From positions 32,001 through 96,000 of the IMG/VR virus record IMGVR_UViG_3300044591_002420: a stretch of DNA of 64,000 bases. The stretch is one strand, 5' to 3'. Every line of letters starts with the position of its first letter. Position 1 is the stretch's first letter. Made by a program: the position numbers and the translations under genes. The notes under the pieces were generated by a model. It did not search any database, had not been told where the DNA came from, and saw only the letters and a program-made list of their open reading frames with translations. Shown one piece after another: positions 1 to 58,867 of this stretch. Origin of the DNA: a virus.

Positions 1-54
1 CCACACTTCATCAAGAAGTATCTCAAAATTCAAGAACATCTAAAAACATTATGA
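1..54 (+). CDS. 3' end of an LRV-repeat family gene (truncated by window edge)
   Basis: Encodes the family C-terminal cap PHFIKKYLKIQEHLKTL*; nearly identical to 33947-34000. Confidence 0.8.
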   Translation, partial: PHFIKKYLKIQEHLKTL

Positions 55-455
55 ACAAACTTGAACAAGCTAGAGATCCAAACACATCACCCGAAATCCT
101 AGAACAACTAGCGACCGATGAAGATTCTATTGTTCGTTGTCGGGTAGCAAGACATCCTAACACTCTACCAACAACATTAGAACTTTTAGCTACTGATAAT
201 GATTATTGGGTTCTTTGGGATGTAACAGAACATCCAAACACTCCACCAAAAGTTTTAGAACAACTAGCGACCGATTATCGATATTGGGTTCGTTGGAACG
301 TAGCAGAACATCCAAACACTCCACCAAAAGCCCTAGAAATTCTAGCTACCGATGAGTATATTAGTGTTCGTCTTGAAGTGGCAAGAAATCCAAGCACACC
401 ACACTACATCAAGAAGTTCATTACCATTCAAGAACAGCTTAGGTCACTTCCATAA
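51..455 (+). CDS. LRV (leucine-rich variant)/HEAT-like repeat protein
   Basis: 26-aa repeats NPNTPPKxLExLATDxxxxVRxxVAx plus cap PHYIKKFITIQEQLRSLP. Confidence 0.9.
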   Translation: MNKLEQARDPNTSPEILEQLATDEDSIVRCRVARHPNTLPTTLELLATDNDYWVLWDVTEHPNTPPKVLEQLATDYRYWVRWNVAEHPNTPPKALEILATDEYISVRLEVARNPSTPHYIKKFITIQEQLRSLP

Positions 456-499
456 CTGTCACAATAACCACGGATAACACCATAGAAATCTGCTATAGT
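443..499 (+). promoter_or_regulatory. Representative palindromic motif + extended -10 promoter
   Basis: GTCACTT-ccat-AACTGTC at 443-460, TGcTATAGT at 491-499; ~35 similar copies in the window. Confidence 0.7.
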
Positions 500-521
500 T
501 TGTGATAATTACAAATTTCTC

Positions 522-1265
522 ATGTCCAACTATGTTTTTATTGGAGACGTACATTCACAATACTCTAATTTTTCTGCTGCTATTCGGTGGGTCCAGGAGA
601 ATGTAGAGGATTATCACATCATTCAAGGTGGTGATCTTTTTGATTCACGTACACAAGAATCCGATTCATTGGGTGTCTATAATCTAGTTCGCTCTCTTGG
701 AGATAAAATCACGGTTCTTCATTCCAATCATCATCTTAAACTCTATAAGTATCTCACCCAAGATAATAACAAAATGCAAAATATTGAGTCGCTTATGAGA
801 ACGGTGAATGATTTTGGATTTGATACTAACGAAGAACTTAGAGATGAAGTTATAGCATGGCTGTCATCTCTTTCGTATGGAGTTGCAATTAAGGATAATG
901 ATGGTCTTGAGTATAGAGCGTGTCATGCTTATTGGTTCTCACGTCTTTATGTACCACATGATTATGAAGGAATCTATAAGATCTTTGATGTATCTTCTAA
1001 GGCAAAGGGTCAGATGCTTTATGGTATCTCTCGTCGTGGAGTAGATGGTAATTCTGAACGAATTTTATGGTGGAATTCAACTGAACATAGGCAACACGAA
1101 ACTTTCGTAAGAGTTGCTTTCCATTATCATACTGTTTCAATTGATCTTCAAAATCGTTATCTGATTCTGGATGGATCTTGTGGAGATGATAATGGAACTT
1201 TAATTGCTTATGATGTGAACAATAAGCAATGTGTAGGTTTTCAAAGTGGCACAAGACTTTTCTAA
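522..1265 (+). CDS. Calcineurin-like metallophosphoesterase (ApaH/PrpE/Pnkp-phosphatase-like)
   Basis: Motifs GDVH, GGDLFD, SNHH, CHAY, FHYH, LDGSC. Confidence 0.8.
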   Translation: MSNYVFIGDVHSQYSNFSAAIRWVQENVEDYHIIQGGDLFDSRTQESDSLGVYNLVRSLGDKITVLHSNHHLKLYKYLTQDNNKMQNIESLMRTVNDFGFDTNEELRDEVIAWLSSLSYGVAIKDNDGLEYRACHAYWFSRLYVPHDYEGIYKIFDVSSKAKGQMLYGISRRGVDGNSERILWWNSTEHRQHETFVRVAFHYHTVSIDLQNRYLILDGSCGDDNGTLIAYDVNNKQCVGFQSGTRLF

Positions 1266-2061
1266 ACACTTTCTAAACATGTTATGGTACTTGAAAATTG
1301 GAGAACTCAATGGCTCTTGACGCATTTTTGACTCAACTTCTTCTTGATTTGGAAGATCTTGAGAATGACATCAAATATGATCTTCCGGGTGAAAGCGTTC
1401 CTGCATCTAAGCTCAGAGACATTATTGAAAACGTGGAAGATTATCAAGAAAATGAGGTATAAAGTTATCTTTCTTAAACCCAAAAAGAAGAGAGGCTTCT
1501 TTTCTATACAAGAAGCCACATTCTTTGATATTGAATCTGCATTCTTCTATCAAACAAAGATGGAACAGCTAGGTTCAAAAGATTTCAAAATCATTCCAAT
1601 TTGATGAGGCTTTAACAATGACTCAAACTCTAATCCGAACCGAAATGCCCCGAATTGTTGATGTTGAGCCTTATTTTGATAATAATTTTTGGTGGGCTCA
1701 GATTAGATACAGTGATGGTGGCGAGGATGTTCATGGACCTTTTGATTCTAAAGAAAAGGCTGAAGGAGTTATCTTTTGATGACTTTGAAAGCTCATTATA
1801 TCAGATCTCCGACGAGCAAGGATTTCTTTCTCCCGATCAGATGTTGATCATGGGAGTTAAAGTTCATGTTCATTTATTCGTTTCTGATTTTTTAGATCTA
1901 TTCATTTACTCAAGACTCAAACTATGAAACTCAAACCGCTTTATCCCGAACCGAAAACCGAAGAGTCATCCTCAGAAGAACGAATTATGGATTTGCTTTT
2001 AGAAGACGATGACGAACAGGAATATCCTGAATATGATGACGTTCCACCCGCAATCTGAATC

Positions 2062-2331
2062 ATGTCTGACATTCTTGAAATCATTCGTGTTGAAATTGAT
2101 TATCAACCAAAGACCTCTACTCTATGGATGAGAGTTCAGGCGCTTGTTGATAACATGGTTCTGGTTCATCATCAGACTCTATATGATCCAGAAGAATATG
2201 AACCCGCTGTATGTGTAACGGAACTGACTCTTGATGATAGTCATCCAGATGTAACTCTTAATGATGATGAAATAACAGTGATTTTGGAGGAATCTGGATG
2301 TACCTGGACCCTTTACGAAGGTGACACTTGA
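2062..2331 (+). CDS. Hypothetical protein
   Basis: ATG ORF co-oriented with neighbours; its stop lies within a palindromic motif copy. Confidence 0.7.
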   Translation: MSDILEIIRVEIDYQPKTSTLWMRVQALVDNMVLVHHQTLYDPEEYEPAVCVTELTLDDSHPDVTLNDDEITVILEESGCTWTLYEGDT

Positions 2332-3948: not shown

Positions 3949-4245
3949 ATGGTTTATGATGTGGCAACTCTAGAACAACTAGAGACCGATAAGAACTCTT
4001 ATATTCGTGTGGGTGTATCAAAAAATCCAAACACACCACCAACAACATTAGAACAACTAGCGACCGATGATTATTGGTATGTTCGTTGGAATGTAGCACT
4101 ACATCCAAACACACCACCAAAAGCGCTAGAAATTCTAGTGAGCGATGAGGATCCATATGTTCGTATATGGCTAGCACAAAATCCAAACACTCCACAATAC
4201 ATCAAGAAGTATCTTAAACTTCAAGAACAACTATCTAGATTATGA
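3949..4245 (+). CDS. LRV-repeat protein
   Basis: Three 26-aa repeats plus cap PQYIKKYLKLQEQLSRL. Confidence 0.9.
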   Translation: MVYDVATLEQLETDKNSYIRVGVSKNPNTPPTTLEQLATDDYWYVRWNVALHPNTPPKALEILVSDEDPYVRIWLAQNPNTPQYIKKYLKLQEQLSRL

Positions 4246-5423: not shown

Positions 5424-5915
5424 GTGAATGTTATTGAAAAGCTCACTCTAGCACAAAATCCAAACACACCTCCAAAAGTTCTAGAACACCTAGCGACCGA
5501 TGAAGATTCTTATGTTCGTAGTAACGTAGCACTAAATCCAAACATACCACCAAAAGCACTAGGACAACTAGCGACTGATGGGAATTATGGTGTTCGTTAT
5601 AATGTAGCACAAAATCCAAACACACCACCAAAAGCCCTAGAAATTCTAGCAAATGATGTGGATTATTGGGTTCGTGAAGAAGTAGCAAATAATCCAAATA
5701 CTCCATCAAAAGTCTTAGAACTTCTAGCGACCGATGAGGATTATAATGTTCGTTGTGTAGTAGCAAATAATCTAAACACACCACCAAAAGCCCTAGAACA
5801 ACTAGCGACTGAGGAGAATTATTATGTTCGTTATTATGTAACAAAAAATCCAAACATCCCACATTATATCAAAAAGTATATTAAAATTCAAAAACATCTT
5901 AAGACACTTTCATAA
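5424..5915 (+). CDS. LRV-repeat protein
   Basis: Five repeats plus cap. Confidence 0.9.
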   Translation: MNVIEKLTLAQNPNTPPKVLEHLATDEDSYVRSNVALNPNIPPKALGQLATDGNYGVRYNVAQNPNTPPKALEILANDVDYWVREEVANNPNTPSKVLELLATDEDYNVRCVVANNLNTPPKALEQLATEENYYVRYYVTKNPNIPHYIKKYIKIQKHLKTLS

Positions 5916-7711: not shown

Positions 7712-8326
7712 ATGATCTACACTGAAGACCAAGTAACAGAAATCGTCAAGCGAGTTATTAAAGAACTCCAGCCTGATATCTCGGGTTTATCGTCGAATGA
7801 AAAATATAAATTGGCTAGCGATCCTCAAACTTCAACAAAAGTTCTAGAACTTTTGGCAACAAATAATTGTATTCATTCTCGCTGTGGGGTAGCAGAAAAT
7901 CCAAACACACCTACAAAAACTCTAGAATCTCTTGCGATAGATAATCATTCTTGGGTTCGTTGGCGTGTAGCAAAAAATCTAAACACACCACCAAAAGCCC
8001 TAGAAATTCTAGCGACCGATAAGTATTCTCATGTTCGTTTGGGGGTAGCATATAATCCAAACACTCCACCAAAATCTCTAGAACTTCTAGTGACCGATAA
8101 TGAGTGGGATGTCCTTAAAGCTGTAGTACAAAATCCAAACGCAACACAAAAAACACTATTGATTTTGTCGGCAACAAATGATTACATGATTCAGCACTAT
8201 GTAGAAAAACATCCAAACTATGATCCACCCGAAACAATAACAATCACTAAAAAACAAAAACAAGCACTAAAAGATCTAATCATTTCCACACAAAATCCTA
8301 TTCTAAAGGATATTAATCTAGGTTAA
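7712..8326 (+). CDS. LRV-repeat protein, subfamily with alternative N- and C-caps
   Basis: Repeats plus tail HPNY...TKKQKQALKDLI shared with 15368, 26683, 51882. Confidence 0.88.
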   Translation: MIYTEDQVTEIVKRVIKELQPDISGLSSNEKYKLASDPQTSTKVLELLATNNCIHSRCGVAENPNTPTKTLESLAIDNHSWVRWRVAKNLNTPPKALEILATDKYSHVRLGVAYNPNTPPKSLELLVTDNEWDVLKAVVQNPNATQKTLLILSATNDYMIQHYVEKHPNYDPPETITITKKQKQALKDLIISTQNPILKDINLG

Positions 8327-8352
8327 TATTTCCCCAAATAACGAGTTCAATC

Positions 8353-8676
8353 ATGAAAAATTTCATTAAAAAATTCTTTGAAAAATGGAGAGCGAAATAT
8401 CTTGAGGAAAAAAGATTAGAAAATATTGATATTAATGCATGGCATACGTTACTATACCTAGAAGATAAGAACTCGGCTTTGGAAGTCATTAAAACAAATC
8501 ATACACCTTTTTATATTCTTGAAGTATATGCTAATGATAGTCTAGTGGAATTCCGAAAAGCTGTTGTAAACCATAATAATACCATCAAAGAAACACTTGA
8601 ACTCATGGTAAACGACGAAACTAATGAGATCAGTGAAATTGCTCAACACCGCCTTATAAATAAAATTTACCACTGA
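8353..8676 (+). CDS. Divergent LRV/HEAT-like protein
   Basis: TP..ILE..AND....RKAV..H.NT..ETLE repeat remnants. Confidence 0.55.
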   Translation: MKNFIKKFFEKWRAKYLEEKRLENIDINAWHTLLYLEDKNSALEVIKTNHTPFYILEVYANDSLVEFRKAVVNHNNTIKETLELMVNDETNEISEIAQHRLINKIYH

Positions 8677-8687: not shown

Positions 8688-8933
8688 ATGACACCAACAG
8701 AACCACAACAAACTGAAAATCTAAACACACCACCGAAAATCCTAGAACAACTAGCTTCCAAAAAGGATAATGGTATCCAGTGGAAGGTAGCACTGAATTC
8801 AAACACATCACCAAAAGCCCTAGAACTACTAGCAAATGATGAGGAATTTCTTCGTCAATTCATTGTATCAAAAATTGATCTCCCTATGATAAAAATTATT
8901 AAACTATCTCCTATTATTGAAAATCTCTATTAA
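8688..8933 (+). CDS. Short LRV-repeat protein
   Basis: NLNTPPKILEQLA..VALNSNTSPKALELLAND. Confidence 0.7.
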   Translation: MTPTEPQQTENLNTPPKILEQLASKKDNGIQWKVALNSNTSPKALELLANDEEFLRQFIVSKIDLPMIKIIKLSPIIENLY

Positions 8934-12550: not shown

Positions 12551-12551
12551 T

Positions 12552-14764: not shown

Positions 14765-15383
14765 CATGAATCAAAAACCTTCATGGGCAGAATCTCCAGA
14801 CTGGGCTGTGTGTCTAGGATTCGCTTTTTCTGGTGATGATTACGACTTCTATAGTGAAATATACGGCGAAGAAAATGTAAAGGTAATGAAGCGGCGGTGG
14901 TGTTATTTTTCTTATCCGAATCCGATAGGCATTGTAAATCTTGAATATCGTCCAGAAGATAATATTATCAAAAAATATATGGTATGGTTATGGGCAATAG
15001 AAGGCATCGGAATTCTAATCCCCGTTGAATCTCCCCTTTCAAAGATAAAACTTCAAAATTATTATAATCTCTTAATTCCTTCATTAAAAAGAGTTGATGT
15101 TTACACAGAATCTCAATTCAAAGAACAAAAATTTTCTTGGTCAAAAAATACACCGGTAAAGGTAGAATACGCTGATTATAATTGTCTGACTGATAATCTT
15201 CAGAGACAATTTACCAAACTAACAAAAGAATATAATACTTTATCCAACAGACTTTCTAATCCTAATTTTGAAGAAAAAGCACCAAAAGATATCGTCTTAA
15301 AATGTCAAACTGATTATGAAAGAGTCAAAGCCGAACTAATCCTTATTGAAAGTAAATTAAAACTATCATGCAAATCTCACTAG
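14730..15383 (+). CDS. Hypothetical protein with C-terminal ValRS tRNA-binding-arm-like coiled coil
   Basis: LSNRLSNPNFEEKAPKDIV resembles the ValRS C-terminal KLxNxxFxxKAPxxVV. Confidence 0.6.
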   Translation: MKRWIILLDNFSMNQKPSWAESPDWAVCLGFAFSGDDYDFYSEIYGEENVKVMKRRWCYFSYPNPIGIVNLEYRPEDNIIKKYMVWLWAIEGIGILIPVESPLSKIKLQNYYNLLIPSLKRVDVYTESQFKEQKFSWSKNTPVKVEYADYNCLTDNLQRQFTKLTKEYNTLSNRLSNPNFEEKAPKDIVLKCQTDYERVKAELILIESKLKLSCKSH

Positions 15384-15820
15384 AAGAACTTCAAGAAATC
15401 TTTGATAAAGTTCTTACCGAAGTAAAAGTAAAAAAATGTTGCTCCGAATCAGATAAAATTTTACTATCCAAAGATCCCAAAACACCAGAAGAAACACTAC
15501 TAATCTTAGCGACCGATGTGAATCCTGATGTTCGTTATTTTGTAGCACAAAATCCCAATACTCCACCAAAAGCCCTTGAACAACTAGCCATAGATGAATA
15601 TCATGGTGTTCGTTGTTGTGTAGCAAATAATCCAAATACTCCACCAAAAGTCTTAGAAATTCTAGCGACCGATGAGGAATATTGTGTTCGTTGGAGAGTA
15701 GAACTAAATCCAAACCATAACCCAAAAGAGACTCTTGAAGTAACTAAACAACAAAAAGAAGCTCTTAAGAAATTGATTGATGCTAGCCAAGATGTATCAC
15801 TTAAATCTATCAATCTTTAA
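15368..15820 (+). CDS. LRV-repeat protein (alternative-cap subfamily)
   Basis: Repeats plus tail VTKQQKEALKKLIDASQ. Confidence 0.88.
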   Translation: MQISLEELQEIFDKVLTEVKVKKCCSESDKILLSKDPKTPEETLLILATDVNPDVRYFVAQNPNTPPKALEQLAIDEYHGVRCCVANNPNTPPKVLEILATDEEYCVRWRVELNPNHNPKETLEVTKQQKEALKKLIDASQDVSLKSINL

Positions 15821-18784: not shown

Positions 18785-19132
18785 ATGACCCGACAAATTA
18801 AGGATTATTGGGTTAGTATTGAAGAAGCAAATAATCCAAACACACCACCAAAAGCCCTAGAACAACTAGCGACCGATGAGCATTATAGTGTTCGTTTGTG
18901 GGTAGCACGAAACCCAAACACGTCATTAGAAACTCTAGAAATTCTAGCGACCGATGAGAATTCTGGTGTTCGTTTGTGGGTAGCACATAATCCAAATACA
19001 CCACCAAAAATATTAGAACAACTAGCGACCGATGAGGCTTCTTATGTTCGTAGTGGTGTAGCAGATAATCCAAACACACCTCGCTACATCAAAAAGTATC
19101 TCAAAATTCAAGCACAACTGGCGACATTATGA
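18785..19132 (+). CDS. LRV-repeat protein
   Basis: Three repeats plus cap. Confidence 0.9.
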   Translation: MTRQIKDYWVSIEEANNPNTPPKALEQLATDEHYSVRLWVARNPNTSLETLEILATDENSGVRLWVAHNPNTPPKILEQLATDEASYVRSGVADNPNTPRYIKKYLKIQAQLATL

Positions 19133-19388
19133 ACAAACTTGAACAAGCTAAAGATCCATCCACACCAACAATCTTAGAACTTCTAGCGACCGATGAGAAA
19201 TATTGTGTTCGTTGGAGATAGAACAAAGACAAAAAGCTAAATTGCTCAAACAACAACGAAAAGAATATCACAAACTAAAAAATATTTTAAGCGATTCAAC
19301 ATTTAACGATAAGACTCCGACTCATGTAATAGAAAAGTATCACAATCGTCTTAATGTTCTTAAAGATATTCTCGTTGACGCTTTATGA
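19129..19388 (+). pseudogene. Frameshifted LRV / ValRS-arm-like fusion
   Basis: ORF 19129-19221 (one LRV unit) stops at AGA TAG; one extra G would continue into EQRQK...ILSDSTFNDKTPTHVIEK. Confidence 0.5.
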
Positions 19389-19812
19389 ACTGTCACACAG
19401 AAGAGCATTAAAACAGTTCAGATATGCAAGAATGATCAAGTTGGATGAAACATCGCTTATGGGCTGGCTTATTAAAGAGCTTAGAGATGATTTATTTTAT
19501 TATCTCGCCAAAACAAAATATACTCCACCAAAAGTCTTAAAACTTTTAGCATCCGATGATGATTGCTATATTCGTTATCGGGTAGCACTAAACCGAAACA
19601 CTCCACCAAAAGCACTAGAACAACTAGCGACCGATGAAGAATGGGATGTTCGTTGTAGTGTAGCAAGAAATCCAAACACCCCACCAAAAGCACTAGAACA
19701 ACTAGCGACCGATGAGAGTTATTTTGTTCGTTATCGGGTAACAAGAAATCCAAACACACCACAATACATCAAGAAATATATTAAAATTCAAGAACAGCTT
19801 ATCAAATTATGA
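19354..19812 (+). CDS. LRV-repeat protein (true start probably ~19432-19459)
   Basis: Three repeats plus cap; the promoter motif lies inside the ORF-track 5' extension. Confidence 0.85.
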   Translation: MFLKIFSLTLYELSHRRALKQFRYARMIKLDETSLMGWLIKELRDDLFYYLAKTKYTPPKVLKLLASDDDCYIRYRVALNRNTPPKALEQLATDEEWDVRCSVARNPNTPPKALEQLATDESYFVRYRVTRNPNTPQYIKKYIKIQEQLIKL

Positions 19813-26682: not shown

Positions 26683-27270
26683 ATGCTTATTGATGTTTAC
26701 AACCTGCCCGCAAATCTTAGAGCTGAAATCATTACACATATTATTGATCCTTGTGTTTTAGTAAATCTGGCGACCGATGAGGATCCTGAGGTTCGTTGGA
26801 GGGTAGCATGTAATCAAAACACACCACCAAAAGTTCTAGAACAACTAGCGACCGATAAGAATGATAATGTTCGTTATTGGGTAGCAGAAAATCCAAACAC
26901 ACCACCGGAAACACTAAAAATCCTATCGACCGATATGGATTGGGTTGTTCGTTGTAGAGTAGCAAAACAGCCAAATACTCCACCAGAAATCCTAGAAGTT
27001 CTAGCGAGCGATGTATGCTTTACTGTTCTTAAAGGAGTAGCGGAAAATCCAAAAACACCTTCAGCCGCTTTAGAAAAAATTATCAATAAAAATTTTAGTA
27101 CCTACATAGGGCTTATTGAATTTGATAAAAACGCACTGATCAAAACGGCTAAAGAACATCCAAACTATAAAAAATCGGTCAATCTTGATCTTTCACAATC
27201 ACAACTAACTGCTCTCAAAAATCTTATTGCTGCATCAAGCGATCCATATCTTCGGGAACTTTTTAACTGA
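26683..27270 (+). CDS. LRV-repeat protein (alternative-cap subfamily)
   Basis: Four repeats plus tail HPNY..LSQSQLTALKNLI. Confidence 0.88.
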   Translation: MLIDVYNLPANLRAEIITHIIDPCVLVNLATDEDPEVRWRVACNQNTPPKVLEQLATDKNDNVRYWVAENPNTPPETLKILSTDMDWVVRCRVAKQPNTPPEILEVLASDVCFTVLKGVAENPKTPSAALEKIINKNFSTYIGLIEFDKNALIKTAKEHPNYKKSVNLDLSQSQLTALKNLIAASSDPYLRELFN

Positions 27271-31730: not shown

Positions 31731-32093
31731 TTGATTATGTGTCATTATCTCCAATCATGGAATCCAAACACACCACCAAAAACACTGGAACAACTAGCAA
31801 CCGATGAATATTATTTGGTTCGTTGGAACGTAGCAAATAATCCAAACACACCACCAAAAACACTGGAACAACTAGCAACCGATGAATATTATTTGGTTCG
31901 TTGGAACGTAGCAAATAATCCAAACACACCACCAAAAGTTCTAGAAATTCTAGCGACCGATAAGGAGTATCGGGTTCGTTATGGGGTAGCAATAAATCCA
32001 AACACTCCACACTACATCAAAAAGTATCTTAAAATTCAAGAACATCTTAGGACACTCCACAAACTGTCACATCCTCAACACCATACCACCTAA
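31731..32093 (+). CDS. LRV-repeat protein with two identical 78-bp units
   Basis: 31761-31838 equals 31839-31916. Confidence 0.9.
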   Translation: MIMCHYLQSWNPNTPPKTLEQLATDEYYLVRWNVANNPNTPPKTLEQLATDEYYLVRWNVANNPNTPPKVLEILATDKEYRVRYGVAINPNTPHYIKKYLKIQEHLRTLHKLSHPQHHTT

Positions 32094-32463: not shown

Positions 32464-33054
32464 ATGATTAATTTGGAAGATTATGTAGATCAGGAAGTGA
32501 TTATTATTAATAGTGAAAGACTATCACGATTTAACTATCATTCTATCTGCTATAAGGTAGGGAAAGTCACCAGAAAACATCATGATTCTACCAGTATTAA
32601 TCATTTTATTATCGGTAAAGACTCTTACACAAAAGAGGGTCGTCTTTTTGGGGGCGAGGGTGTGCAGAAGATTATATATATTCACCGCATTGTTCCGAAA
32701 CTTATTGGTTTGGCTCAGAAGGCACCCAATATTGAACTGGAGCAATTTGTGGGTAAGAAAGTTCTTGTTAAGTATAATGATAACACCGTTTATATTGGTA
32801 GAGTAGAAAAAAATGACAATGGAATTCTCTGCAGTTTTAATATCGGTAGTACTTCCTTCACTCATAAGGGATGTGTATATGGATGCTCTGATCCAAAATC
32901 TATTCTAGAAATTTATGAAGAAGGCGCATATCAACTCTTCACTTCATCTATTCCCGAACCTGAAAATAAAAAGATGAATGAATTAGCTGAACAGATTAAG
33001 GAACTCAATGAAACAGAACTAGTGGAATTGTTTAAGATTATTAAGGAACCTTGA
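32464..33054 (+). CDS. Hypothetical protein with internal duplication
   Basis: INLEDYV.Q.V and IELEQFVGKKV halves, F.IG..S.T..G twice. Confidence 0.65.
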   Translation: MINLEDYVDQEVIIINSERLSRFNYHSICYKVGKVTRKHHDSTSINHFIIGKDSYTKEGRLFGGEGVQKIIYIHRIVPKLIGLAQKAPNIELEQFVGKKVLVKYNDNTVYIGRVEKNDNGILCSFNIGSTSFTHKGCVYGCSDPKSILEIYEEGAYQLFTSSIPEPENKKMNELAEQIKELNETELVELFKIIKEP

Positions 33055-33602
33055 TGGATTTGTCTATTGATTCCTATGTTTCACCAGAAGTTCTTGCTGA
33101 TCTCGCGGGGAACGATAGCCGTAAGATTCGGTGTGATGTGGCGTGTCATCCCAACACGCCATTGGAAGCCTTAGAACTTCTAGCTACTGATTGTGATCCT
33201 GATGTTCGTTATTACGTAGCATTAAATGATAATACCCCATCGGGTACACTAGAACAATTAGCTAAAGATACAGATTTTGATGTTCGCTGTGAAGTAGCAT
33301 GTCATCTAAACACACCGACAGAAATCCTAGAACAACTAGCGACCGATAAAGTGTCTCCTGTTCGTTGGGGAGTAGCAAGAAATCCAAACACACCACCAAA
33401 AGCCCTAGAACAACTAGCGACCGATGAGAATCATAATGTTCGTTGTGGGGTGGCAGAAAATCCAAACACTCCACCAAAAGCCCTAGAGCTTCTAGCGACC
33501 GATAAGAACTCTGATGTTCGTTATTGGGTAGCAAGAAATCCAAACACTCCACACTACATCAAAAAGTATCTTAAAATTCAAGAACATTTAGCTAGATTAT
33601 GA
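33051..33602 (+). CDS. LRV-repeat protein
   Basis: Six repeats plus cap. Confidence 0.9.
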   Translation: MMDLSIDSYVSPEVLADLAGNDSRKIRCDVACHPNTPLEALELLATDCDPDVRYYVALNDNTPSGTLEQLAKDTDFDVRCEVACHLNTPTEILEQLATDKVSPVRWGVARNPNTPPKALEQLATDENHNVRCGVAENPNTPPKALELLATDKNSDVRYWVARNPNTPHYIKKYLKIQEHLARL

Positions 33603-34000
33603 ACAAATTTAGAACATCAAAAAGCCGACGTACTTCACCAAAAGTCTTAGAAATTCTAGTGACCGATGAGGATCGTAATGTTCGTTCCAAAGTAGCACGA
33701 AATCCAAACACACCACCAGAAGTCCTAGAACAACTGGCAACAGATCAGGATTATGTTGTTCGTTATGCTGTAGCAACACATCTAAACACTCCACCGAAAG
33801 TTCTAGAACAACTATCGACCGATGATATATTGGATGTTCGTTGGGATATTGCAGAAAATCCAAACACTCCACCAAAAGCTCTAGAACAACTAGCGAGCGA
33901 TGAGGATTTTTCTGTTCGTTGTAGCGTAGCAGAAAATCCAAACACACCACACTTCATCAAGAAGTATCTTAAACTTCAAGAACATCTAAAAACATTATGA
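33599..34000 (+). CDS. LRV-repeat protein
   Basis: Four repeats plus cap. Confidence 0.9.
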   Translation: MNKFRTSKSRRTSPKVLEILVTDEDRNVRSKVARNPNTPPEVLEQLATDQDYVVRYAVATHLNTPPKVLEQLSTDDILDVRWDIAENPNTPPKALEQLASDEDFSVRCSVAENPNTPHFIKKYLKLQEHLKTL

Positions 34001-41959: not shown

Positions 41960-43210
41960 ATGACCAAAGAAGCAACTTTTGAGACTGCCGATTTCTTTAT
42001 TGTTCCCGAAGAAGTTTCTTACTTCTCTACTCCAAACTTTACCTCATACTATAATAACATGCGTACAGATTATGAGGCAAAAGAACATACTTTCAAAAAA
42101 GCAGTCATTGCTGGAGCTGTTATTCTGGCTGCTTCAAAGGCACAACGTCTTCATACAGTTTGGCCCGATATTCCTAATGACTATTTTCGGAATTATTGGC
42201 CTCTTCTTGAACTTCCGATTGAGCTTGAACTACTTAATGATGAGCTGGTCGCCAACTGGTTTCGGGAGAACATGAGCTATCGTACATTTTTCAATATGAT
42301 TTATCGTCATGCTCGTCGTTATGGAAAGGCTCTTTATCAAGAAGATGAGATTCCAAATAAATTGACCGAGATTAACTTTGATGATATTCTTAAATCTGGT
42401 ACAGGTACAGTAGAAAGTATTTTGGATCAGTTGGCACTCAAAGAAGAAGCGATTTATGATAATTATATTAATGGAAATATGGAAGATTCTGATTCAAATC
42501 AAGAATCTTTCCGTGCAATCAGCATTCTTTATCATATCGCGGGACATCCTAACACTTCCTCTGAGACATTGGCGCGGTTGGCATCCAATGACGATTATCC
42601 ATCATATGTGTATCGGCAGGTTGTATTGAATCCGAACACACCAGAAGATATTCGGCTCAGTCTTATTATTGAACGGGGTGTTGAAGATGTGAATTCTCAG
42701 CTCAAAGATACACTTAGTCAGCTCCAAAAAATGCTAAAAGCTGGCGATACCATTGTTCCAGAAACTCGTAAAGATGATGGAACAATTAAGAAGTGGCGTT
42801 GGCGTCTTATTGATTTTCACGATAACATCAGCTATCTTTATCTGATGCGAGAGATTAAAAATGTTGAGTTTACCAACAATACCATCAAAAATCAGTATCA
42901 AGAAGGCTCCTGGAATGTATATCAACCCAAAGATAGCGTGGCTCTAGCAATGTGGGCACAAAAAGTCAAGAATTGTATTCGTTCACGAGAAGATAATGTT
43001 CACAGTGGGGATTCAGAAATCGTATTCATTGAGCGTAATGGTGTTCCCGCTTATACTGTTGAAGTTCGTCCGGGAGCACCTAAACGTCGCAATCTCTCAG
43101 AACTTAATATCAAAGAGATTCAGGCATTTGGTGCTCGCACCGGCACCACTCGTGACAATCAAGGAGAGATCTTGAATATGATTAAGCGTGCGATGGAAGC
43201 AAATGTATGA
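41960..43210 (+). CDS. PcfJ-like domain protein with an embedded LRV-like unit
   Basis: C-terminal FHD, L..W...V.NCI, YTVEV; internal HPNTSSETLARLA..VVLNPNTP. Confidence 0.5.
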   Translation: MTKEATFETADFFIVPEEVSYFSTPNFTSYYNNMRTDYEAKEHTFKKAVIAGAVILAASKAQRLHTVWPDIPNDYFRNYWPLLELPIELELLNDELVANWFRENMSYRTFFNMIYRHARRYGKALYQEDEIPNKLTEINFDDILKSGTGTVESILDQLALKEEAIYDNYINGNMEDSDSNQESFRAISILYHIAGHPNTSSETLARLASNDDYPSYVYRQVVLNPNTPEDIRLSLIIERGVEDVNSQLKDTLSQLQKMLKAGDTIVPETRKDDGTIKKWRWRLIDFHDNISYLYLMREIKNVEFTNNTIKNQYQEGSWNVYQPKDSVALAMWAQKVKNCIRSREDNVHSGDSEIVFIERNGVPAYTVEVRPGAPKRRNLSELNIKEIQAFGARTGTTRDNQGEILNMIKRAMEANV

Positions 43211-43855: not shown

Positions 43856-44128
43856 GTGCCTTTAATGGCGCCCATTCTTATTATGAGCAAACTTGACCGG
43901 GCAAGAAATCCGAACACCCCACCAAAAGCACTAGAACAACTAGCATCCGATGAGCATTATCTTGTTCGGTATTATGTAGCAGAAAACCCAAATACTCCAC
44001 CAAAAGCCCTAGAAATTCTAGCAAATGATGTGGATTATTGGATTCGTCGTTGGGTAGCAATAAACCCGAACACACCTCACTATCTCAAAAAGTATCTTAA
44101 AATTCAAGAACAGCTTATCAAATTATGA
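43856..44128 (+). CDS. LRV-repeat protein
   Basis: Two repeats plus cap. Confidence 0.9.
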   Translation: MPLMAPILIMSKLDRARNPNTPPKALEQLASDEHYLVRYYVAENPNTPPKALEILANDVDYWIRRWVAINPNTPHYLKKYLKIQEQLIKL

Positions 44129-46440: not shown

Positions 46441-46950
46441 ATGAACATTTTTGCAACTTCATCTTGCCCCGAACAATCAGCAATCGTTCTTCCTGATAAG
46501 CACATCAATAAGATGCCAACTGAATGTTGTCAGATGTTGGCATATGCCGCATCATCTTCTTACAATAACTACGGAACAATTCCAAAAATCAACGGTGAAC
46601 CATATAAGACCACAAATATCGCTCATCTTAAGCATCCATGTACAAAATGGGCAGCAGAATCAATTCATAATGCTTCCTGGTTGATTTATCATGCGTTTAT
46701 GTTGTGTGAAGAATTTGAGCGCCGATTTGGTCATAAACATGGAACTTATAATACTCTCATGGCAGCTTATGTGTTGTTTCCAGAAGGTCAATTTTCGTTG
46801 ATAACTCCATTTGTTCGCTCAATGGATGAAGTTTTTAAGTTTGATACTACCATTGATACGTTTATGGCATATAAGCTCTATCTTGCGAGTAAGCCATGGA
46901 TTCAGGATAATTATATTCGTTTGCCCGAAAGGAAGCCGGAATGGATTTAA
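46441..46950 (+). CDS. Pyrimidine-dimer DNA glycosylase (DenV)-like family protein
   Basis: MNIF...P..SA..L.DKH..KM..E..QML, H..HPC..W, E...R.G..H. Confidence 0.7.
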   Translation: MNIFATSSCPEQSAIVLPDKHINKMPTECCQMLAYAASSSYNNYGTIPKINGEPYKTTNIAHLKHPCTKWAAESIHNASWLIYHAFMLCEEFERRFGHKHGTYNTLMAAYVLFPEGQFSLITPFVRSMDEVFKFDTTIDTFMAYKLYLASKPWIQDNYIRLPERKPEWI

Positions 46951-47354
46951 ATTCTAAAATAATACAATCTAATAACCCAAACACTTCACCCGAAATCCTA
47001 GATCAACTAGCAGCAGATCCGAGATATTGTGTTCGTATGGGTGTAGCAGAAAATCCAAACACATCGCCAGAAGTCTTAGAACAACTAGCGACCGATGATG
47101 ATCTTTGGGTTCGTCGTGGTGTAGCACGAAATCCAAACACATCACCACATATTCTGGAATTATTGGCGACCGATAATTATTATATTGTTCTTTGGAACGT
47201 AGCACTACATCCAAACACCTCACCAAAAGCACTAGAAATTCTAGCGACCGATATGGATTATTCTATCTGCCATAAAGTAACAGAAAATCCAAACACTCCA
47301 CAATACATTAAGAATTATATTAAAATTCAAGAACAGCTTAAGACACTTTCATAA
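46941..47354 (+). CDS. LRV-repeat protein
   Basis: Four repeats plus cap. Confidence 0.9.
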   Translation: MDLNSKIIQSNNPNTSPEILDQLAADPRYCVRMGVAENPNTSPEVLEQLATDDDLWVRRGVARNPNTSPHILELLATDNYYIVLWNVALHPNTSPKALEILATDMDYSICHKVTENPNTPQYIKNYIKIQEQLKTLS

Positions 47355-47419: not shown

Positions 47420-48100
47420 ATGAATTCTTCTGAAATCACAACCGCTGTTAGTGAAGCGCTTCAACGACATATCCCTCTTATTGTTGAAGAAGTAACAACA
47501 AAGCTAATCAAGAAAGAAAAATGGGAAGATTATAGTGTTGAGAAACTATCTGCGATGGCAGTGAGTGAAGATTACAAGCAAAGATGTTCTGCCGCAGCAC
47601 ATCCAAGAACACCCATGGAAATCATTTATAAGCTGCTTGAGGATCCGAATCATAATGTTAGGTTAGCAGTAGGACGAAATCCTAATATTCCACTCATCAC
47701 TCTTAGCTCACTTTCATTATATCCATCTTTAATCAAAAGACTTAAAACTGAGGGGAATTTAAATCAAATTATGGAGTTTTTTGATGAAGCTAAAGCCAAT
47801 AAAAGCACCCGACGAAGCTTTAGAATGTTGATTGAAGAAAGAATTATGAATGGTGATTTTGATGACGAGCTTAACAACGGTGTTGACGGATCGCGTGGAA
47901 TTTTTAACTTGAATACACCAGCCAAATCACTTATTAATTGGACTAAAAATACTTCAGATTTTTATTATGATTTTAGATTTTTATGTAAACTCATGATTAA
48001 ATATCGGTTCAAAAGATTCCTCCAAACTGCAACGCCAGACGAAAAAGAGTTATTGATCCATCTTATGCCAACATTAGCAAGTTTTATGACCACTCCATAA
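47420..48100 (+). CDS. Protein with divergent LRV repeats and unknown C-terminal domain
   Basis: AAAHPRTP..LLED...VRLAVGRNPNIP. Confidence 0.7.
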   Translation: MNSSEITTAVSEALQRHIPLIVEEVTTKLIKKEKWEDYSVEKLSAMAVSEDYKQRCSAAAHPRTPMEIIYKLLEDPNHNVRLAVGRNPNIPLITLSSLSLYPSLIKRLKTEGNLNQIMEFFDEAKANKSTRRSFRMLIEERIMNGDFDDELNNGVDGSRGIFNLNTPAKSLINWTKNTSDFYYDFRFLCKLMIKYRFKRFLQTATPDEKELLIHLMPTLASFMTTP

Positions 48101-50480: not shown

Positions 50481-51521
50481 ATGGCTAAGAGTGATCAGCT
50501 TATTCCAAAAATTCCCGAAGAAGCGTCTTCTGCGATTGATCTAGCCAAGAAAACAACAGACAGAGCTGTTCTTATCGCTCTTTCAAAACATAGTAATAAT
50601 GATGTAAGATTCTTTGTTGCTGAAAATCGTTACACTCCTATTGAGGTTCTCAGAGAACTTTCAAAGGATTGTTATTTTACTGTTCGGCTTAAAGTTGCGG
50701 GAAATCCTTCAACTCCTTCGGATGTTTTAGAGAATATTATGGAAAATGATATTTCTCTTAAGGCAGCAGTGGAAAATAATCTTTCTTATAAAAGTAAAGA
50801 TAAAGAAGAAGTTCAGGCTTTTCTTAAGAACATTAGTATAACTGATGCCAAAAATTTAGCGGAAAATATTAATACTCCTCCTGAGACACTTATTAAACTT
50901 GCCGGGCATAAAAATTCATATGTTACTCTTCTGCTATCTCGTAATCCCAATACTCCAGCAGAAGCTCTTAAAATTCTTGCAACCCTTGATGACCGTATTG
51001 TAAGAAATTATGTGTTTGATCATAATAATTCGTCAGCAGAAACCTTAGCTATTATTGATTGTATAGACGGTTTTACTACAGGAGAATATAGGATTCTTTA
51101 CGATAAACAGGCCCGTATTATTGAAAAATACAAAAGAGAAGAAACACAAAGAGTTACACAACGAGAACAAGAACAGAAACAACTAAAAGAAAAAGAAGAA
51201 AAACTCCAGAGTGAATTAGAACATAGGCAAGAATCTCAAAGAATTCTCGCAATTATTAGTAATCCCGAAACACCTATTGAAGAATTATTAAAATACAGCT
51301 ATCGTGAAGAAATCATTAACAACCCAACCTATAGGAGATACCTAAATCTCAATAAGACAGACCCAACTGATTTAGAAATTCTAGATTTTTTAGATTGGGT
51401 CTATAATGCAGACACAGAAAAACTAGAAGCCTTTGCTGCACTAGATTTATCTAAGAAATTATCATTGTGGGAAAAACTAATTCTGTTCTTTAAAAATCTC
51501 TTTAACGGAAAAACATTATGA
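50481..51521 (+). CDS. Divergent LRV-repeat protein with coiled coil
   Basis: Several VR..VA.N..TP...L units, E/K/Q-rich segment. Confidence 0.8.
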   Translation: MAKSDQLIPKIPEEASSAIDLAKKTTDRAVLIALSKHSNNDVRFFVAENRYTPIEVLRELSKDCYFTVRLKVAGNPSTPSDVLENIMENDISLKAAVENNLSYKSKDKEEVQAFLKNISITDAKNLAENINTPPETLIKLAGHKNSYVTLLLSRNPNTPAEALKILATLDDRIVRNYVFDHNNSSAETLAIIDCIDGFTTGEYRILYDKQARIIEKYKREETQRVTQREQEQKQLKEKEEKLQSELEHRQESQRILAIISNPETPIEELLKYSYREEIINNPTYRRYLNLNKTDPTDLEILDFLDWVYNADTEKLEAFAALDLSKKLSLWEKLILFFKNLFNGKTL

Positions 51522-51881: not shown

Positions 51882-52286
51882 ATGTCAATCACAACTGAAC
51901 AACTAAAAGAGATTTTCAATAAAGTTCTTTCGGAAATTGAAAATCTAAATGTTGCGAACCTTTCTTATTTTGAAAAGAAATCGCTAGCTTGTGATCCCAA
52001 AACCTCACCGGAAATCTTAGCAGTTCTGGCTACCGATGAGGATTCTCTTGTTCGTTATTTGGTAGCAAGAAATCCAAACACACCACCAAAAGTCCTAGAA
52101 CAACTAGCGACCGATGTGGAATATTGGATTCGTTGTTGTGTAGCAAAACATCCAAACTATGAAAAAGCTACTGTAAGGGTTCCAGATCTATCTGTGGCTG
52201 AATATAATGCCCTAAAAGAACTACTCAAAAATACACAAAATCAAAGTCTAAAATCTCTTTCCATCAAACTAGGAGTCATTCAATGA
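51882..52286 (+). CDS. LRV-repeat protein (alternative-cap subfamily)
   Basis: N-terminal I...L.EIF.KVL.E like 15368; HPNY tail. Confidence 0.88.
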   Translation: MSITTEQLKEIFNKVLSEIENLNVANLSYFEKKSLACDPKTSPEILAVLATDEDSLVRYLVARNPNTPPKVLEQLATDVEYWIRCCVAKHPNYEKATVRVPDLSVAEYNALKELLKNTQNQSLKSLSIKLGVIQ

Positions 52287-53234: not shown

Positions 53235-53849
53235 ATGAAACCTCAATTCTTCTCTGCTCAAATTCCATTTATGGGATTTTATGCTTCCATTCATTCTGAT
53301 GCTATTGATCACGAAGAAGAACAACTGTTCACTTCTGATACAGGAAAATTCTATGATGCACTTTATGATGACTTTTTTCTTCATGTGAATTGGGAACAAG
53401 TTTATCAGAAGTATGCAACAGTTTATTGCGATGAATTCGCTAAGACTTTTGGTATCACTCTTGATTTTGAAGAGTTAGTTTCTCCGAGAGAATATAACTT
53501 CCAAACCGATCGGATTTTCGCAAAGATCTCAAGGAATGATCTTGCAAAGATTCTTAAAAAAGTTCGCGGGGAGAAACTGAAGAATACAACCAATAAGCTC
53601 TTTTCTTCTCGGTCTGGTTTCGTTTCTTATTATTCCAATAACATCAGAGATTGGGGTAAAATTTCTACTTGGGACCACAATCAAATCTATGCAATTTTAG
53701 TTGCGTTCACTGAATCTTCTTTCTCGGAAGATGAGATCTTGTCTAGTATTTTTGAAAACAATAATGTTGGTGATTGGATTTATGAATCCGCAGATTATAA
53801 AGGTAAACTGGCCATAAAATTTGCCGATATTATGAGGAGAGTTTATTGA
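53235..53849 (+). CDS. Hypothetical phage protein
   Basis: PF.GFY, SPREYNF.TDRI, SRSGF.SYYSN. Confidence 0.7.
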   Translation: MKPQFFSAQIPFMGFYASIHSDAIDHEEEQLFTSDTGKFYDALYDDFFLHVNWEQVYQKYATVYCDEFAKTFGITLDFEELVSPREYNFQTDRIFAKISRNDLAKILKKVRGEKLKNTTNKLFSSRSGFVSYYSNNIRDWGKISTWDHNQIYAILVAFTESSFSEDEILSSIFENNNVGDWIYESADYKGKLAIKFADIMRRVY

Positions 53850-54193
53850 TGGTCTACCTAAAAACAACAGAATCAAGAGAATCTGCTGCACGAAATCCAA
53901 ACACACCGCCAAAAACTCTAGAGCAACTAGCGACCGATGATGATTGGAATGTTCGTTGGAACGTAGCAGAAAATCCAAACACACCACCAAAAGCCCTAGA
54001 GATTCTAGCGAGCGATGAGAATTCTCTTGTTCGTTGGAAGGTAGCAAGAAATCCAAACACCCCACCAAAAGTCTTAGAACAACTAGCGTCTGATGAGGAT
54101 TGGATGGTTCGTTATCGTGTAAAACATAATCCAAACACACCACACTACATCAAAAAGTATCTTAAAATTCAAGAACAACTAGCTAGATTATGA
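53846..54193 (+). CDS. LRV-repeat protein
   Basis: Three repeats plus cap. Confidence 0.9.
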   Translation: MMVYLKTTESRESAARNPNTPPKTLEQLATDDDWNVRWNVAENPNTPPKALEILASDENSLVRWKVARNPNTPPKVLEQLASDEDWMVRYRVKHNPNTPHYIKKYLKIQEQLARL

Positions 54194-54360
54194 ACAAATA
54201 TTACCTTGCTATAGACCCAAACACTTCAACAGAAATCCTAGAACAACTGGCAACCGATGAGAGTCCTTCCGTTCGCTGTAATGTAGCAGAAAATCCAAAC
54301 ACTCAACATTACATCAAGAGGTATCTTAAAATTCAAGAACATCTTAGGACACTTCCATAA
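54190..54360 (+). CDS. Single-unit LRV protein (56 aa, not in the ORF track)
   Basis: MNKYYLAIDPNTSTEILEQLATDESPSVRCNVAENPNTQHYIKRYLKIQEHLRTLP*. Confidence 0.8.
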   Translation: MNKYYLAIDPNTSTEILEQLATDESPSVRCNVAENPNTQHYIKRYLKIQEHLRTLP

Positions 54361-56877: not shown

Positions 56878-57246
56878 ATGATTATGTCAAAGAATGAAGA
56901 TATTACGAAGCTAACACTTAATGAAAAATGTAATCAAGCTAGAGATCCAAACACTCCACCAAAAACTCTAGTACAACTAGCTACCGATGAGGAATGGTAT
57001 GTTCGTTATTGGGTAGCACTAAACCCAAACACTCCACTAAAAGTTCTAGAACATCTAGCAGCCGATGAAAATTATTGGGTTCGTGATGAAGTAGCAAATA
57101 ATCTAAACACACCAATAAAAACACTAGAACAACTAGCGAGCGATGAGTATATTAGTGTTCGTCTTGAAGTGGCAAGAAATCCAAACACACCACACTACAT
57201 CAAGAAGTTCATTACCATTCAAGAACAGCTTAGGTCACTTCCATAA
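56878..57246 (+). CDS. LRV-repeat protein
   Basis: Three repeats plus cap identical to that of 51-455. Confidence 0.9.
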   Translation: MIMSKNEDITKLTLNEKCNQARDPNTPPKTLVQLATDEEWYVRYWVALNPNTPLKVLEHLAADENYWVRDEVANNLNTPIKTLEQLASDEYISVRLEVARNPNTPHYIKKFITIQEQLRSLP

Positions 57247-57286
57247 CTGTCACAATAACCACCAATAACACCATAGAAATCTGCTA
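57142..57286 (+). repeat. 145-bp near-identical copy of 351-495
   Basis: Covers last LRV half-repeat, cap, palindromic motif and promoter; about 3 mismatches by eye. Confidence 0.9.
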
Positions 57287-57312
57287 GTATTCAACTACAA
57301 ACCGATCTTCTC

Positions 57313-57576
57313 ATGTCAACACGAATTATTACCCACTACAATCCACCACCACATCGCCGTTCTTTTGGTGGATTTATTCGCTTTCTTCGTAGCGTTATTA
57401 ATATTTTGTTGTTGTTAATTGGCTTTATCATCGCATTTTATCTCGCAGTCGCTATTTTGTCATTTTTTGTGGTTTCAATAATTAAAGGAAATGTTATTGG
57501 AATTATTGGCAGTATTGTAATCGCACTCATCGTAATCATCGTCACTTATCTAGTGGAAGCATATAAAAACTACTAA
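57313..57576 (+). CDS. Small two-TM membrane protein
   Basis: Two long hydrophobic stretches. Confidence 0.65.
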   Translation: MSTRIITHYNPPPHRRSFGGFIRFLRSVINILLLLIGFIIAFYLAVAILSFFVVSIIKGNVIGIIGSIVIALIVIIVTYLVEAYKNY

Positions 57577-58021
57577 TTTATGATAAGTCTAGTAATTTAT
57601 GTCATTTCGTTTCTTCTACTGACCCTCTTATATTGTGCAGGATCATTAATGATTTTTTTGATTATTGAAATCCTAAATGAATGATGTGTCAGTTGAGCTA
57701 GTGTCCACTCCGACAGTGGTTATTCTGTTGAAGGAGTTATACTTAAAAAGTCTTCAAATCTTCAGTGAAACTCATGTTTGGCAACACGCTCATAATCTAC
57801 ATGAAAAGTGGCAACAAAATTGTGTTGCCCTTTATTTCCGAATATGCCTTTAGAGCAGATGGTGAATCTATCACTTATATTAAAATCACGAGAATTTGGT
57901 GGCTTGAATGGTTGTCACGTCAAAAGTTAATCGTTGAAACAATCAATCTGTCTCAGATTGAAGCGGTCTGTGTAAAATAATAATTATCAAACTGATTAAA
58001 CACTCCACCCCTTTACCATCC

Positions 58022-58867
58022 ATGAAACTTCAAGAAATCATTGCCCATCTGAACACCAAAGAAGAACCCTATTCCGGTGAAGATCTTCAAAGGAAACTTG
58101 GTCACCAAAATCCAGTGGATCTTTCAATCCATGGATTCTCTTTACGTGTGATCCAGAAATATAGCACATCCGTAAGAGCTGCTTATCATCTCATTTACCA
58201 TAATGGTGTTCCAATTTGTATTGCTCATTTTTATCAATCATTTCAATATTTATTGGCTGAATACTGTTGGATCAGTGAAGAAATCTATTGGAATATCCTG
58301 AAAATTATTAAAAATATTCACTCTCAAGATATTCGTCTTATTGTTCAAAATGAAGAATGGGATCCCGTTGATATTGAACTGAAACCAATTAGTGAAATTA
58401 TTCTGTCCGAAAAACAGAAACTTGAACTGGCAAAAAATCCAGATACTTCTTCTGGATTGTTGGAGTTTCTTGCATCCGATGAGAATGAAGAGGTTCGTCG
58501 TCGTGTAGCAGAAAATATAAACACTCCACCAGAAATTCTTGAACAACTAGCGACCGATAAGGATCCTTATGTTCGTTGGTTTGTAGCACGAAATCCAAAC
58601 ACACAATCAGAAGCCTTAGAACTTCTAGCAATCAATAATGATTTTGGTGAGTATCATTGGGGAATTCACTGTGGAGTGGCAAATAATCCAAACACTCCAT
58701 TAAAAACTTTAGAACTTTTTGTGACCCATAATAATGGCGCAGTTCGTTATTGTGTGGCAGGAAATCCAAACACACCAACAAAAATTCTAGAAGTGTTGGT
58801 TAATGATGAGTTTCCTAATGTTCGGGAACGAGCGGCAGAAAATCTTAAATCAAGGACGGTTGCTTAA
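58022..58867 (+). CDS. Unknown N-terminal domain fused to LRV repeats
   Basis: Five C-terminal repeats. Confidence 0.85.
   Translation: MKLQEIIAHLNTKEEPYSGEDLQRKLGHQNPVDLSIHGFSLRVIQKYSTSVRAAYHLIYHNGVPICIAHFYQSFQYLLAEYCWISEEIYWNILKIIKNIHSQDIRLIVQNEEWDPVDIELKPISEIILSEKQKLELAKNPDTSSGLLEFLASDENEEVRRRVAENINTPPEILEQLATDKDPYVRWFVARNPNTQSEALELLAINNDFGEYHWGIHCGVANNPNTPLKTLELFVTHNNGAVRYCVAGNPNTPTKILEVLVNDEFPNVRERAAENLKSRTVA

Follow-up and report, generated by a model that had tools for sequence, protein, structure and literature searches.

A multigene family of LRV-repeat proteins with a constant framework and a hypervariable stripe in a freshwater T4-like cyanomyovirus

LRV genes of the window and of the whole record

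In this work, a family of genes with leucine-rich repeat variant (LRV) units was analysed in a window of 64,000 nucleotides, bases 32001-96000 of an IMG/VR virus record (IMGVR_UViG_3300044591_002420) that is 125,003 bases long and has a CheckV completeness of ~51%. The first-pass annotation had listed 26 dispersed genes built on a 78-bp unit between window positions 1 and 58867. All 26 are open frames of one family (Table 1), and 22 of them encode canonical Pfam LRV proteins with one to six units of 26 amino acids, which is the range given in that annotation. Period-78 arrays were also returned by Tandem Repeats Finder, at 14 loci in 16 rows. Pfam LRV (PF01816) matched seven of the ten genes scanned with 56-128 bits at a curated gathering cut-off of 21.6; the gene at 47420 lay at this cut-off (21.6 bits) and the gene at 41960 close to it (20.1 bits). 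The gene at 8353 had no Pfam LRV match, and its tie to the family is BLASTP single linkage alone. The HEAT family PF02985 scored 27.7-39.2 bits in five of the ten genes (cut-off 23.5), and PF13646 was above its cut-off in three of those five.

A regular-expression search of the record gave 77 units, one of which (genome position 33736) was discarded as false, and a hidden Markov model (HMM) was built from the remaining 76. With this HMM, 95 units (independent E-value < 0.01) were found in the record, every one on the + strand, where almost all genes of the record lie. By summing the HMM listing, 72 of these units fall in 23 frames of window positions 1-58867. The Pfam model gave 71 unit matches across the record. 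The family reaches past the window, with five further genes upstream in the same record, and the canonical genes account for 8.6% of the sequence in the record and for 13.5% in the window. The LRV proteins have 56-204 residues, and 23 of the 26 canonical frames of the record are intact with caps. Neither a second domain nor a visible N-terminal cysteine cluster, the sign sought for an Fe-S domain of the 1LRV type, was present in the canonical genes scanned.

Two alternative C-terminal caps occur among the canonical genes, as had been noticed at first sight of the sequence. Cap A, NPNTP-[HRQC]-[YF]-IKKYLKIQEQL..., ends 19 of the 26 canonical genes of the record, and cap B ends four (three found by regular expression, G09 by eye). 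Three cap-B genes (G09, G11, and G22, at 7712, 15368, and 51882) also have an N-terminal leader of ~20 residues ending in [LI]-x-E (L-T-E, I-K-E, and L-S-E), and the same leader is found in the ortholog of the 15368 gene in a sister phage (IMG/VR record G001) and in the metagenomic protein P0001. Internal proteins of T4 have an N-terminal capsid-targeting sequence that the prohead protease cleaves after [LI]-x-E, and the leader resembles this sequence. Together with the position of genes G01-G03 beside baseplate and tail genes, this would suit proteins associated with the virion, the cap-B subclass being packed in the head and injected like T4 internal proteins and the others decorating the particle as adhesins. 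We consider such a role doubtful, however, because most members, namely those with cap A, have no leader, neither an internal-protein gene nor a prohead protease was identified in the 125-kb fragment, and there is no signal peptide and, at most LRV loci, no link to fibre genes.

Turnover of copies was evident at two loci: G13 (19129-19221) is a stump of 30 codons, and G17 reads 11 codons into the motif downstream of it (32062-32093). Long antisense open frames of up to 148 amino acids run on the - strand through LRV genes (5443-5862, 33609-33950, 53697-54143, and others) and are probably a by-product of the codon make-up of the repeat. A greedy caller of open reading frames (ORFs) chose one of them (3818-4195) instead of the true gene G07.

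Identity of the phage and distribution of the family

The record encodes T4-type baseplate, tail, and helicase proteins. For its gp6 baseplate wedge protein, the identity is 64% with Synechococcus phages B3 and B23, whereas marine cyanomyoviruses reach 53-55%. All of the 20 public sequencing runs that contain the stretch are lake-water or unspecified metagenomes. The window belongs to a freshwater T4-like cyanomyovirus. B3 and B23 are myoviruses of ~244 kb from a subarctic lake (PMC7171214).

No LRV unit is present in B3, the closest relative that has been isolated. By megablast, 10 kb of the window had no match among 50,697 phage records, and when these records were searched by tblastn with an LRV gene, only a weak match of 33% identity was found, in Moorella phage MTATph1. 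PHROGs gave a single weak match, phrog_20647, a family of unassigned function. The LRV family was matched by 146 metagenomic proteins, and the few named homologs belong to Melainabacteria, Obscuribacterales, Betaproteobacteria, Cloacimonetes, and Azoarcus. Several short metagenomic homologs with a related cap sit on contigs of up to 244 kb, and at least seven IMG/VR contigs carry relatives. A scan of metagenome contigs with G15 yielded 394 pattern matches, none of which was confirmed. No account of LRV families in phages was found in the full-text literature that was searched.

Cyanophages often have host-like photosynthesis genes. As the phage is related to cyanomyoviruses and HEAT families exceed their cut-offs, the LRV proteins might mimic or interfere with host photosynthetic HEAT-type proteins (phycobilisome lyase, NblB-like), and their variation would then follow host antenna variants. 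We regard this as quite improbable. No phycobilisome-lyase HEAT family was matched in the Pfam tables of the ten genes scanned, the nearest named cellular homologs (Melainabacteria, Obscuribacterales, and Betaproteobacteria) are not phototrophs, and 25-50 fast-changing paralogs are hard to square with a conserved target.

Constant framework and variable stripe

By comparing the 76 units, an amino-acid entropy of 2.5-3.7 bits was obtained at unit positions 16-19, 22, 23, and 26, and of at most 2.1 bits at all others, with L9 and L12 invariant in 76 of 76 units. The framework is also conserved in the DNA, as had been claimed from the sequence, with the consensus aATCCAAACAC.CCACCAaAAgt.cTAGAAcaaCTAGCgACcGATgAg.ATt.T..tGTTCGTtgt.g.GTAGCA.aA. 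At Asn1, AAT (49 units) prevails over AAC (6 units), and the preference is reversed at Asn3 (AAC in 64, AAT in 6). Similarly, Ala25 is encoded by GCA in 63 units, and Ala13 by a mixture of GCG, GCT, and GCA. Such opposite choices for like residues mean that codon bias alone is insufficient to explain the fixity of the framework. The pattern points to a framework that is partly fixed at the codon level, by shared descent or by homogenisation of the DNA. At the variable positions, the hypervariability that the first-pass annotation described was confirmed by entropy, but its statement that they vary almost freely was too strong, given the restricted residue alphabet of each site. The described richness in W, Y, and C was likewise found (6.2-, 3.1-, and 4.3-fold, respectively), but that in R, D, and N is only mild (1.5-, 1.7-, and 1.2-fold). 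Glutamate is enriched 2.0-fold at these sites, where T, A, V, F, and I are underrepresented.

The AlphaFold2 model of a protein with five units (G08) reached a mean predicted local distance difference test score (pLDDT) of 96.3. In the model, each unit is a helix-loop-helix, and helices of 7 and 9 residues alternate, helix A comprising unit positions 6-12 and helix B positions 18-26. The variable sites are not scattered over this structure: they occupy the loop before helix B (16-17) and one face of helix B, since 18, 19, 22, 23, and 26 correspond to i, i+1, i+4, i+5, and i+8. V20, R21, V24, and A25 lie on the opposite, packed face. According to the model, the seven variable positions would form a continuous exposed stripe along the solenoid, on either its concave or its convex side, and the scaffold would be built by NPNTP, L9, L12, A13, D15, V20, R21, V24, and A25.

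The only solved sequence relative is the leucine-rich repeat variant protein of Azotobacter vinelandii (1LRV; E = 8e-10; PF01816, LRV_2 PF25591), which was also the top Foldseek match of the model (E = 5.4e-5, TMq 0.67). The two have the motif P..L..L..D....VR..VA in common. On the other hand, the phage unit is 26 residues long and contains an NPNTP turn, and 1LRV aligns to it with a gap of two residues per unit. 1LRV carries an N-terminal Fe-S cluster domain, which is a feature of this prototype and not of the Pfam repeat. The phage proteins lack this domain and are small, with dedicated caps and dozens of paralogs. The HEAT repeats of the PP2A subunit PR65/A align with the phage units in the core D....VR..VA, and the fold matches are significant, but PR65 repeats have 39 residues and belong to one long scaffold protein that is neither hypervariable nor a member of a multigene family. 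Engineered alphaRep binders matched the model with a TM score of 0.71 and a root-mean-square deviation of 2.8-2.9. Built on a thermostable HEAT-like repeat scaffold, these binders (for example 3LTJ, 4JW2, and 6GWC) have a similar solenoid, the same helical pattern of positions 18, 19, 22, 23, and 26, a variable repeat number, and N- and C-terminal caps. The alphaRep library randomises positions 18, 19, 22, 23, 26, and 30, the solved complexes use the surfaces formed by variable positions, and the coding scheme kept out cysteine (PMC3754942). The differences are that alphaRep is man-made with units of 31 residues, whereas the phage family is natural, with units of 26 residues rich in Cys and Trp. 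Because its framework is short, has a high predicted folding confidence, and tolerates surfaces rich in W, Y, and C, it could be a natural scaffold for the engineering of binders.

Near-identical units whose number varies and which recombine, with the variation placed at i, i+1, i+4, and i+5 of a single helix, would also be expected of programmable nucleic-acid readers like TALE, PUF, or PPR proteins, in which the hypervariable residues of each unit specify a base. The aromatic and polar residues at these sites are able to stack on bases or pair with their edges. However, the LRV proteins are not basic (median isoelectric point 5.9, net charge -12 to +9), and the stripe is more acidic than basic, with 132 acidic and 65 basic residues among the 574 at variable sites, which argues against a code of the TALE or PUF kind. 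Furthermore, each site shows far more than four residue classes, and no nucleic-acid-binding family was matched in Pfam or PHROGs. A reader function is thus improbable in our opinion.

Substitution rates at the stripe

In pairwise comparison of 2850 unit pairs by the method of Nei and Gojobori (NG86), the proportions of silent (pS) and replacement (pN) differences were 0.333 and 0.156 in the framework, and 0.379 and 0.555 at the seven variable sites. Changes were also counted on a tree, by a procedure of the Suzuki-Gojobori type applied to a FastTree phylogeny of 177 unique units of the two sister phages. The replacement-to-silent rate ratio (dN/dS) was 1.96 at variable sites and 0.45 in the framework. 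The replacement excess was significant at sites 18, 19, and 26 (p < 0.001) and less so at sites 17 and 22 (p ~0.03), and the framework sites 3, 4, 9, 12, and 13 gave dN/dS values of only 0.02-0.13. Silent changes per silent site were alike at variable and framework sites (20.9 and 23.1, respectively), so the variable codons do not simply mutate faster. Amino-acid replacement at the stripe thus exceeds silent change.

Variation confined to a few codons amid conserved DNA, with the third base T retained in many of the variable codons, is also what targeted hypermutation would leave, for example by a diversity-generating retroelement (DGR). However, RVT_1 was matched in neither the 125-kb record nor the 179.5-kb G001, which by synteny together span ~240 kb of a ~244-kb genome, and without a reverse transcriptase in either record a DGR is unlikely. 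Moreover, the equal silent rates speak against it, the common codons TGG, TTG, and GAG are contrary to an adenine-only rule, and ~95 targets in 30 genes would be unlike any DGR. Among the exact-match pairs, no pair of template and variable repeats differing at adenines only was evident, although no search dedicated to such pairs was made. Targeted mutagenesis was rejected on the missing reverse transcriptase, the codon make-up, and the equal silent rates, and we give it hardly any credence.

Exchange between paralogs and comparison with a sister phage

Units are on average 71% identical to one another, and an identity of 90% is attained by only 8 of 2850 pairs. Conversion tracts were sought as maximal exact matches, as high-scoring blastn segments run on through diverged repeats. 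Exact matches of 40-77 nt across variable codons link genes that are tens of kilobases apart. G06 and G25 differ by one mismatch over their last 107 nt, and the preceding 40 nt are only ~72% alike. None of 20000 permutations of the mismatches reached this run length; the permutation ignores uneven conservation, though the runs span hypervariable codons. The identical adjacent units that had been reported at 31761-31916 are real as well and form an exact direct repeat of 99 nt. The suspected mosaicism between paralogs is therefore present as tracts with sharp borders, and segments were exchanged also between loci, with the near-identical DNA of the framework as the substrate of homologous recombination.

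The sister phage G001 is a 179.5-kb IMG/VR record with 63 Pfam unit matches and 97 strict HMM units. By tblastn, 104 of the 218 ORFs of our record match G001, and the core genes are syntenic with 93-100% identity. In 57 gapless core orthologs, the median identity was 96.1%, with pS 0.118 and pN 0.019. The LRV slots are far less stable. Genes of one, five, and six units in one phage correspond to a single gene of eight units in the other, neighbours of 5+4 units to 7+4, one gene to two, and a gene of five units to one of three. Tandem gain and loss have thus affected both units and whole genes. A piece of ~2.6 kb (window 6584-9167) that holds most of Thg1 (its 3' part), two small ORFs, G09, the gene at 8353, and G10 is absent from the otherwise syntenic G001. 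Even in slots with equal numbers of units, the surface residues are different. Within G11 and its ortholog, the leader DNA is 94% identical and the cap similarly conserved, but units 2 and 3 are only ~79% identical. Over 14 positional unit pairs, pN was 0.367 at variable sites and 0.094 in the framework; the former value is ~19-fold the pN and 3-fold the pS of the core genes. Some units have their best counterpart at another G001 locus (window 15629 with 118822, 95%; window -89 with 115471, 94%), at an identity equal to that of the flanks.

Contigs L005-L008 matched the window by blastn at repeats only. The public contigs X1-X4 have flanks identical to those of the window and end at every LRV gene; depth over LRV genes is 3-14 times that of the flanks, and all 40 differences listed lie inside LRV genes, but as paralogous units cross-map, allelic variation in these contigs is indistinguishable from paralogy, and the joints are equally doubtful.

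Gene junctions and a promoter-like motif

Most cap-A genes end in TTATGA, in which the stop codon overlaps the ATG of the next gene, whether that neighbour is an LRV gene or not. By this overlap, the LRV genes ride in existing operons. The remaining cap-A genes end in TAA within the motif AACTGTCACA-N30-TANNNT. There are nine copies of this motif in the window (0.15 expected). Every copy is on the + strand, most come immediately after a stop codon, and four of the nine lie directly behind an LRV gene. The motif looks like a candidate phage promoter class with an activator site. Inspected by eye, about half of the copies show GT-N10-AC with a TANNNT box 22 nt further on, which is the layout of NtcA/CRP-type activated promoters.

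PeSL-type (promoter-stem-loop) modular shuffling in T4-type phages was reportedly described by Arbiol et al. in 2010. By that description, it is likewise a matter of small genes between conserved T4-like genes, moved by recombination via short shared sequences. The shared sequence here is instead the coding repeat and cap, with the ATGA junction or the AACTGTCACA motif, and not a promoter-stem-loop pair. Since either junction allows insertion between genes, the family could be a selfish DNA cassette spread by recombination, the proteins of which have little or no use. The gain, loss, and resizing of copies between the sister phages, the broken G10, G13, and G17, and the lack of any copy in B3 would agree with such a cassette. 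The intact frames with caps, the high-confidence model, the strong purifying selection at scaffold sites, and a replacement excess that is limited to one helix face and not spread over the unit all disagree with it, and we see little probability in this explanation.

A putative repertoire of binding proteins

We hypothesize, and consider it somewhat more probable than its opposite, that the LRV genes are a multigene family specific to this lineage and that their products, small cytoplasmic proteins with an alpha-solenoid fold, act as a natural library of binding proteins. The first-pass annotation had proposed a recombination-shuffled repertoire of natural binders. The repertoire of HEAT-like solenoids, the fixed framework, the hypervariable stripe, the replacement excess, and the mosaic exchange are all borne out, and what is demonstrated ends with these. 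Protein binding is suggested by the fold, by the paratope-like composition of the stripe, and by a pattern of variation that follows the design logic of alphaRep. The LRV proteins would then be binding modules, a hard-wired repertoire whose W/Y/C-rich surface would resemble a paratope, and the repertoire may be aimed at variable proteins of the host or of competitors during infection. From these considerations, host take-over or counter-defence would be the most likely use, which fits the speed of change between near-identical phages. Inhibition of host defence proteins, the example given in the first reading, is by analogy plausible as one of several readings.

Several points weigh against the binder repertoire. 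Surface cysteines are unusual for binders. The dN/dS values are approximate, as the repeats are short and recombining. Silent divergence inside LRV units is 0.23-0.29 between the two phages, about twice that of the core genes (0.118), which means that much of the change between them is replacement of entire segments and not selected point substitution. Decay is seen in some copies (G10, G13, and the stop loss of G17), so not every copy need be functional. Finally, B3 lacks LRV units, which shows that a phage of this type can do without the family.

To our knowledge, known phage counter-defence proteins are mostly single, unrelated small proteins. Elsewhere, the repertoire strategy is represented by the immune receptors of vertebrates, by fungal NLRs, and by the ankyrin families of poxviruses and giant viruses; in fungal NLRs, WD40, ANK, and TPR repeats show concerted evolution and positively selected positions. 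The ankyrin and fungal NLR repertoires likewise comprise many paralogs with near-identical repeat DNA, shuffling of units between loci, and selection on few surface positions. They differ from the phage family in fold and host, and the fungal and animal cases are receptors with signalling domains, whereas the phage proteins are mostly bare repeat arrays. If the binder reading is right, bacterial viruses also use the repertoire strategy, with dozens of copies of one scaffold and a changing surface. It would mean that the targets of the fastest-changing members should be molecules that decide who infects whom, and the comparison with G001 would offer a handle on host factors that vary between lake populations.

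A bolder form of the binder reading, which we put forward as a speculation and think unlikely, is a germline-encoded, antibody-like repertoire of ~50 solenoid binders per genome, in which ~140 interchangeable units recombine against polymorphic host immunity proteins or rival phages, and whose cap-B subclass, with a leader that looks cleavable, is packed in the head, injected, and acts before phage gene expression. If true, nature would have its own counterpart of the engineered alphaRep libraries, and the proteins would constitute a new class of modular anti-defence factors.

Feature coordinates and other genes of the window

Table 1. LRV-family genes and other features, with positions counted from the first base of the window.
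Feature	Position	Strand	Description
G05	1..54	+	3' end of LRV gene; 5 units, cap A; start 449 bases upstream of window
G06	51..455	+	4 units, cap A ending RSLP; start overlaps G05 stop (ATGA)
G07	3949..4245	+	3 units, first degenerate; cap A
G08	5424..5915	+	5 units, cap A; protein modelled
G09	7712..8326	+	N-terminal leader, 4-5 units, cap B
Divergent member	8353..8676	+	BLASTP link only
G10	8688..8933	+	2 units, degenerate C-terminus; possibly decaying copy
G11	15368..15820	+	Leader, 3 units, cap B; units 2 and 3 unlike those of the positional G001 ortholog
G12	18785..19132	+	3 units, cap A
G13	19129..19221	+	Truncated LRV gene fragment, 30 residues
G14	19354..19812	+	N-terminal part of ~60 residues, then 3 units, cap A
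G15	26683..27270	+	4 units, long cap-B-like tail
G16	29016..29555	+	5 units, cap A; likely start GTG 29073
G17	31731..32093	+	3 units, two identical; cap stop lost, +11 residues
G18	33051..33602	+	6 units, cap A
G19	33599..34000	+	4 units, cap A; ATGA overlaps at both ends
Divergent member	41960..43210	+	416 residues; one weak LRV unit and an unrelated C-terminal part
G20	43856..44128	+	2 units, cap A; likely start ATG 43883
G21	46941..47354	+	4 units, cap A ending KTLS
Divergent member	47420..48100	+	Pfam LRV at cut-off
Divergent member	50481..51521	+	346 residues; Pfam LRV 56 bits
G22	51882..52286	+	Leader, 2 units, cap B
G23	53846..54193	+	3 units, cap A
G24	54190..54360	+	1 unit, cap A
G25	56878..57246	+	3 units, cap A; 3' 107 nt near-identical to G06
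G26	58022..58867	+	Unrelated N-terminal domain of 150 residues fused to 5 LRV units, without cap
AACTGTCACA-N30-TANNNT	454, 15836, 19388, 29554, 32062, 48100, 53163, 57245, 59917	+	Candidate promoter motif
Translation/RNA-related genes	6495-7262, 10889-12364, 34489-35952, 40019-41794		See text
tRNA genes	5980, 13130, 23545		tRNA-Arg, tRNA-Met, tRNA-Pro

Besides the LRV family, the window encodes several proteins related to translation and RNA, namely Thg1, a TROVE/Ro-like protein (DUF2828/DUF7788), and two class-II aminoacyl-tRNA synthetases, one of which is AspRS-like with a GAD domain. When this AspRS was used as bait for relatives in IMG/VR, a single locus with 38% identity was recovered. 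A ligase and a NUDIX-cytidylyltransferase are also encoded. At 17349-18012, there are two tandem paralogous genes with a period of 329 nt, which are 77% alike and have Cys-rich products of ~110 amino acids. Dense tandem repeats of 9, 18, 22, 27, and 31 nt (TTATTGTGG-type), including an exact direct repeat of 86 nt, fill positions 63284-63716, and this block could be an iteron-like or regulatory region.

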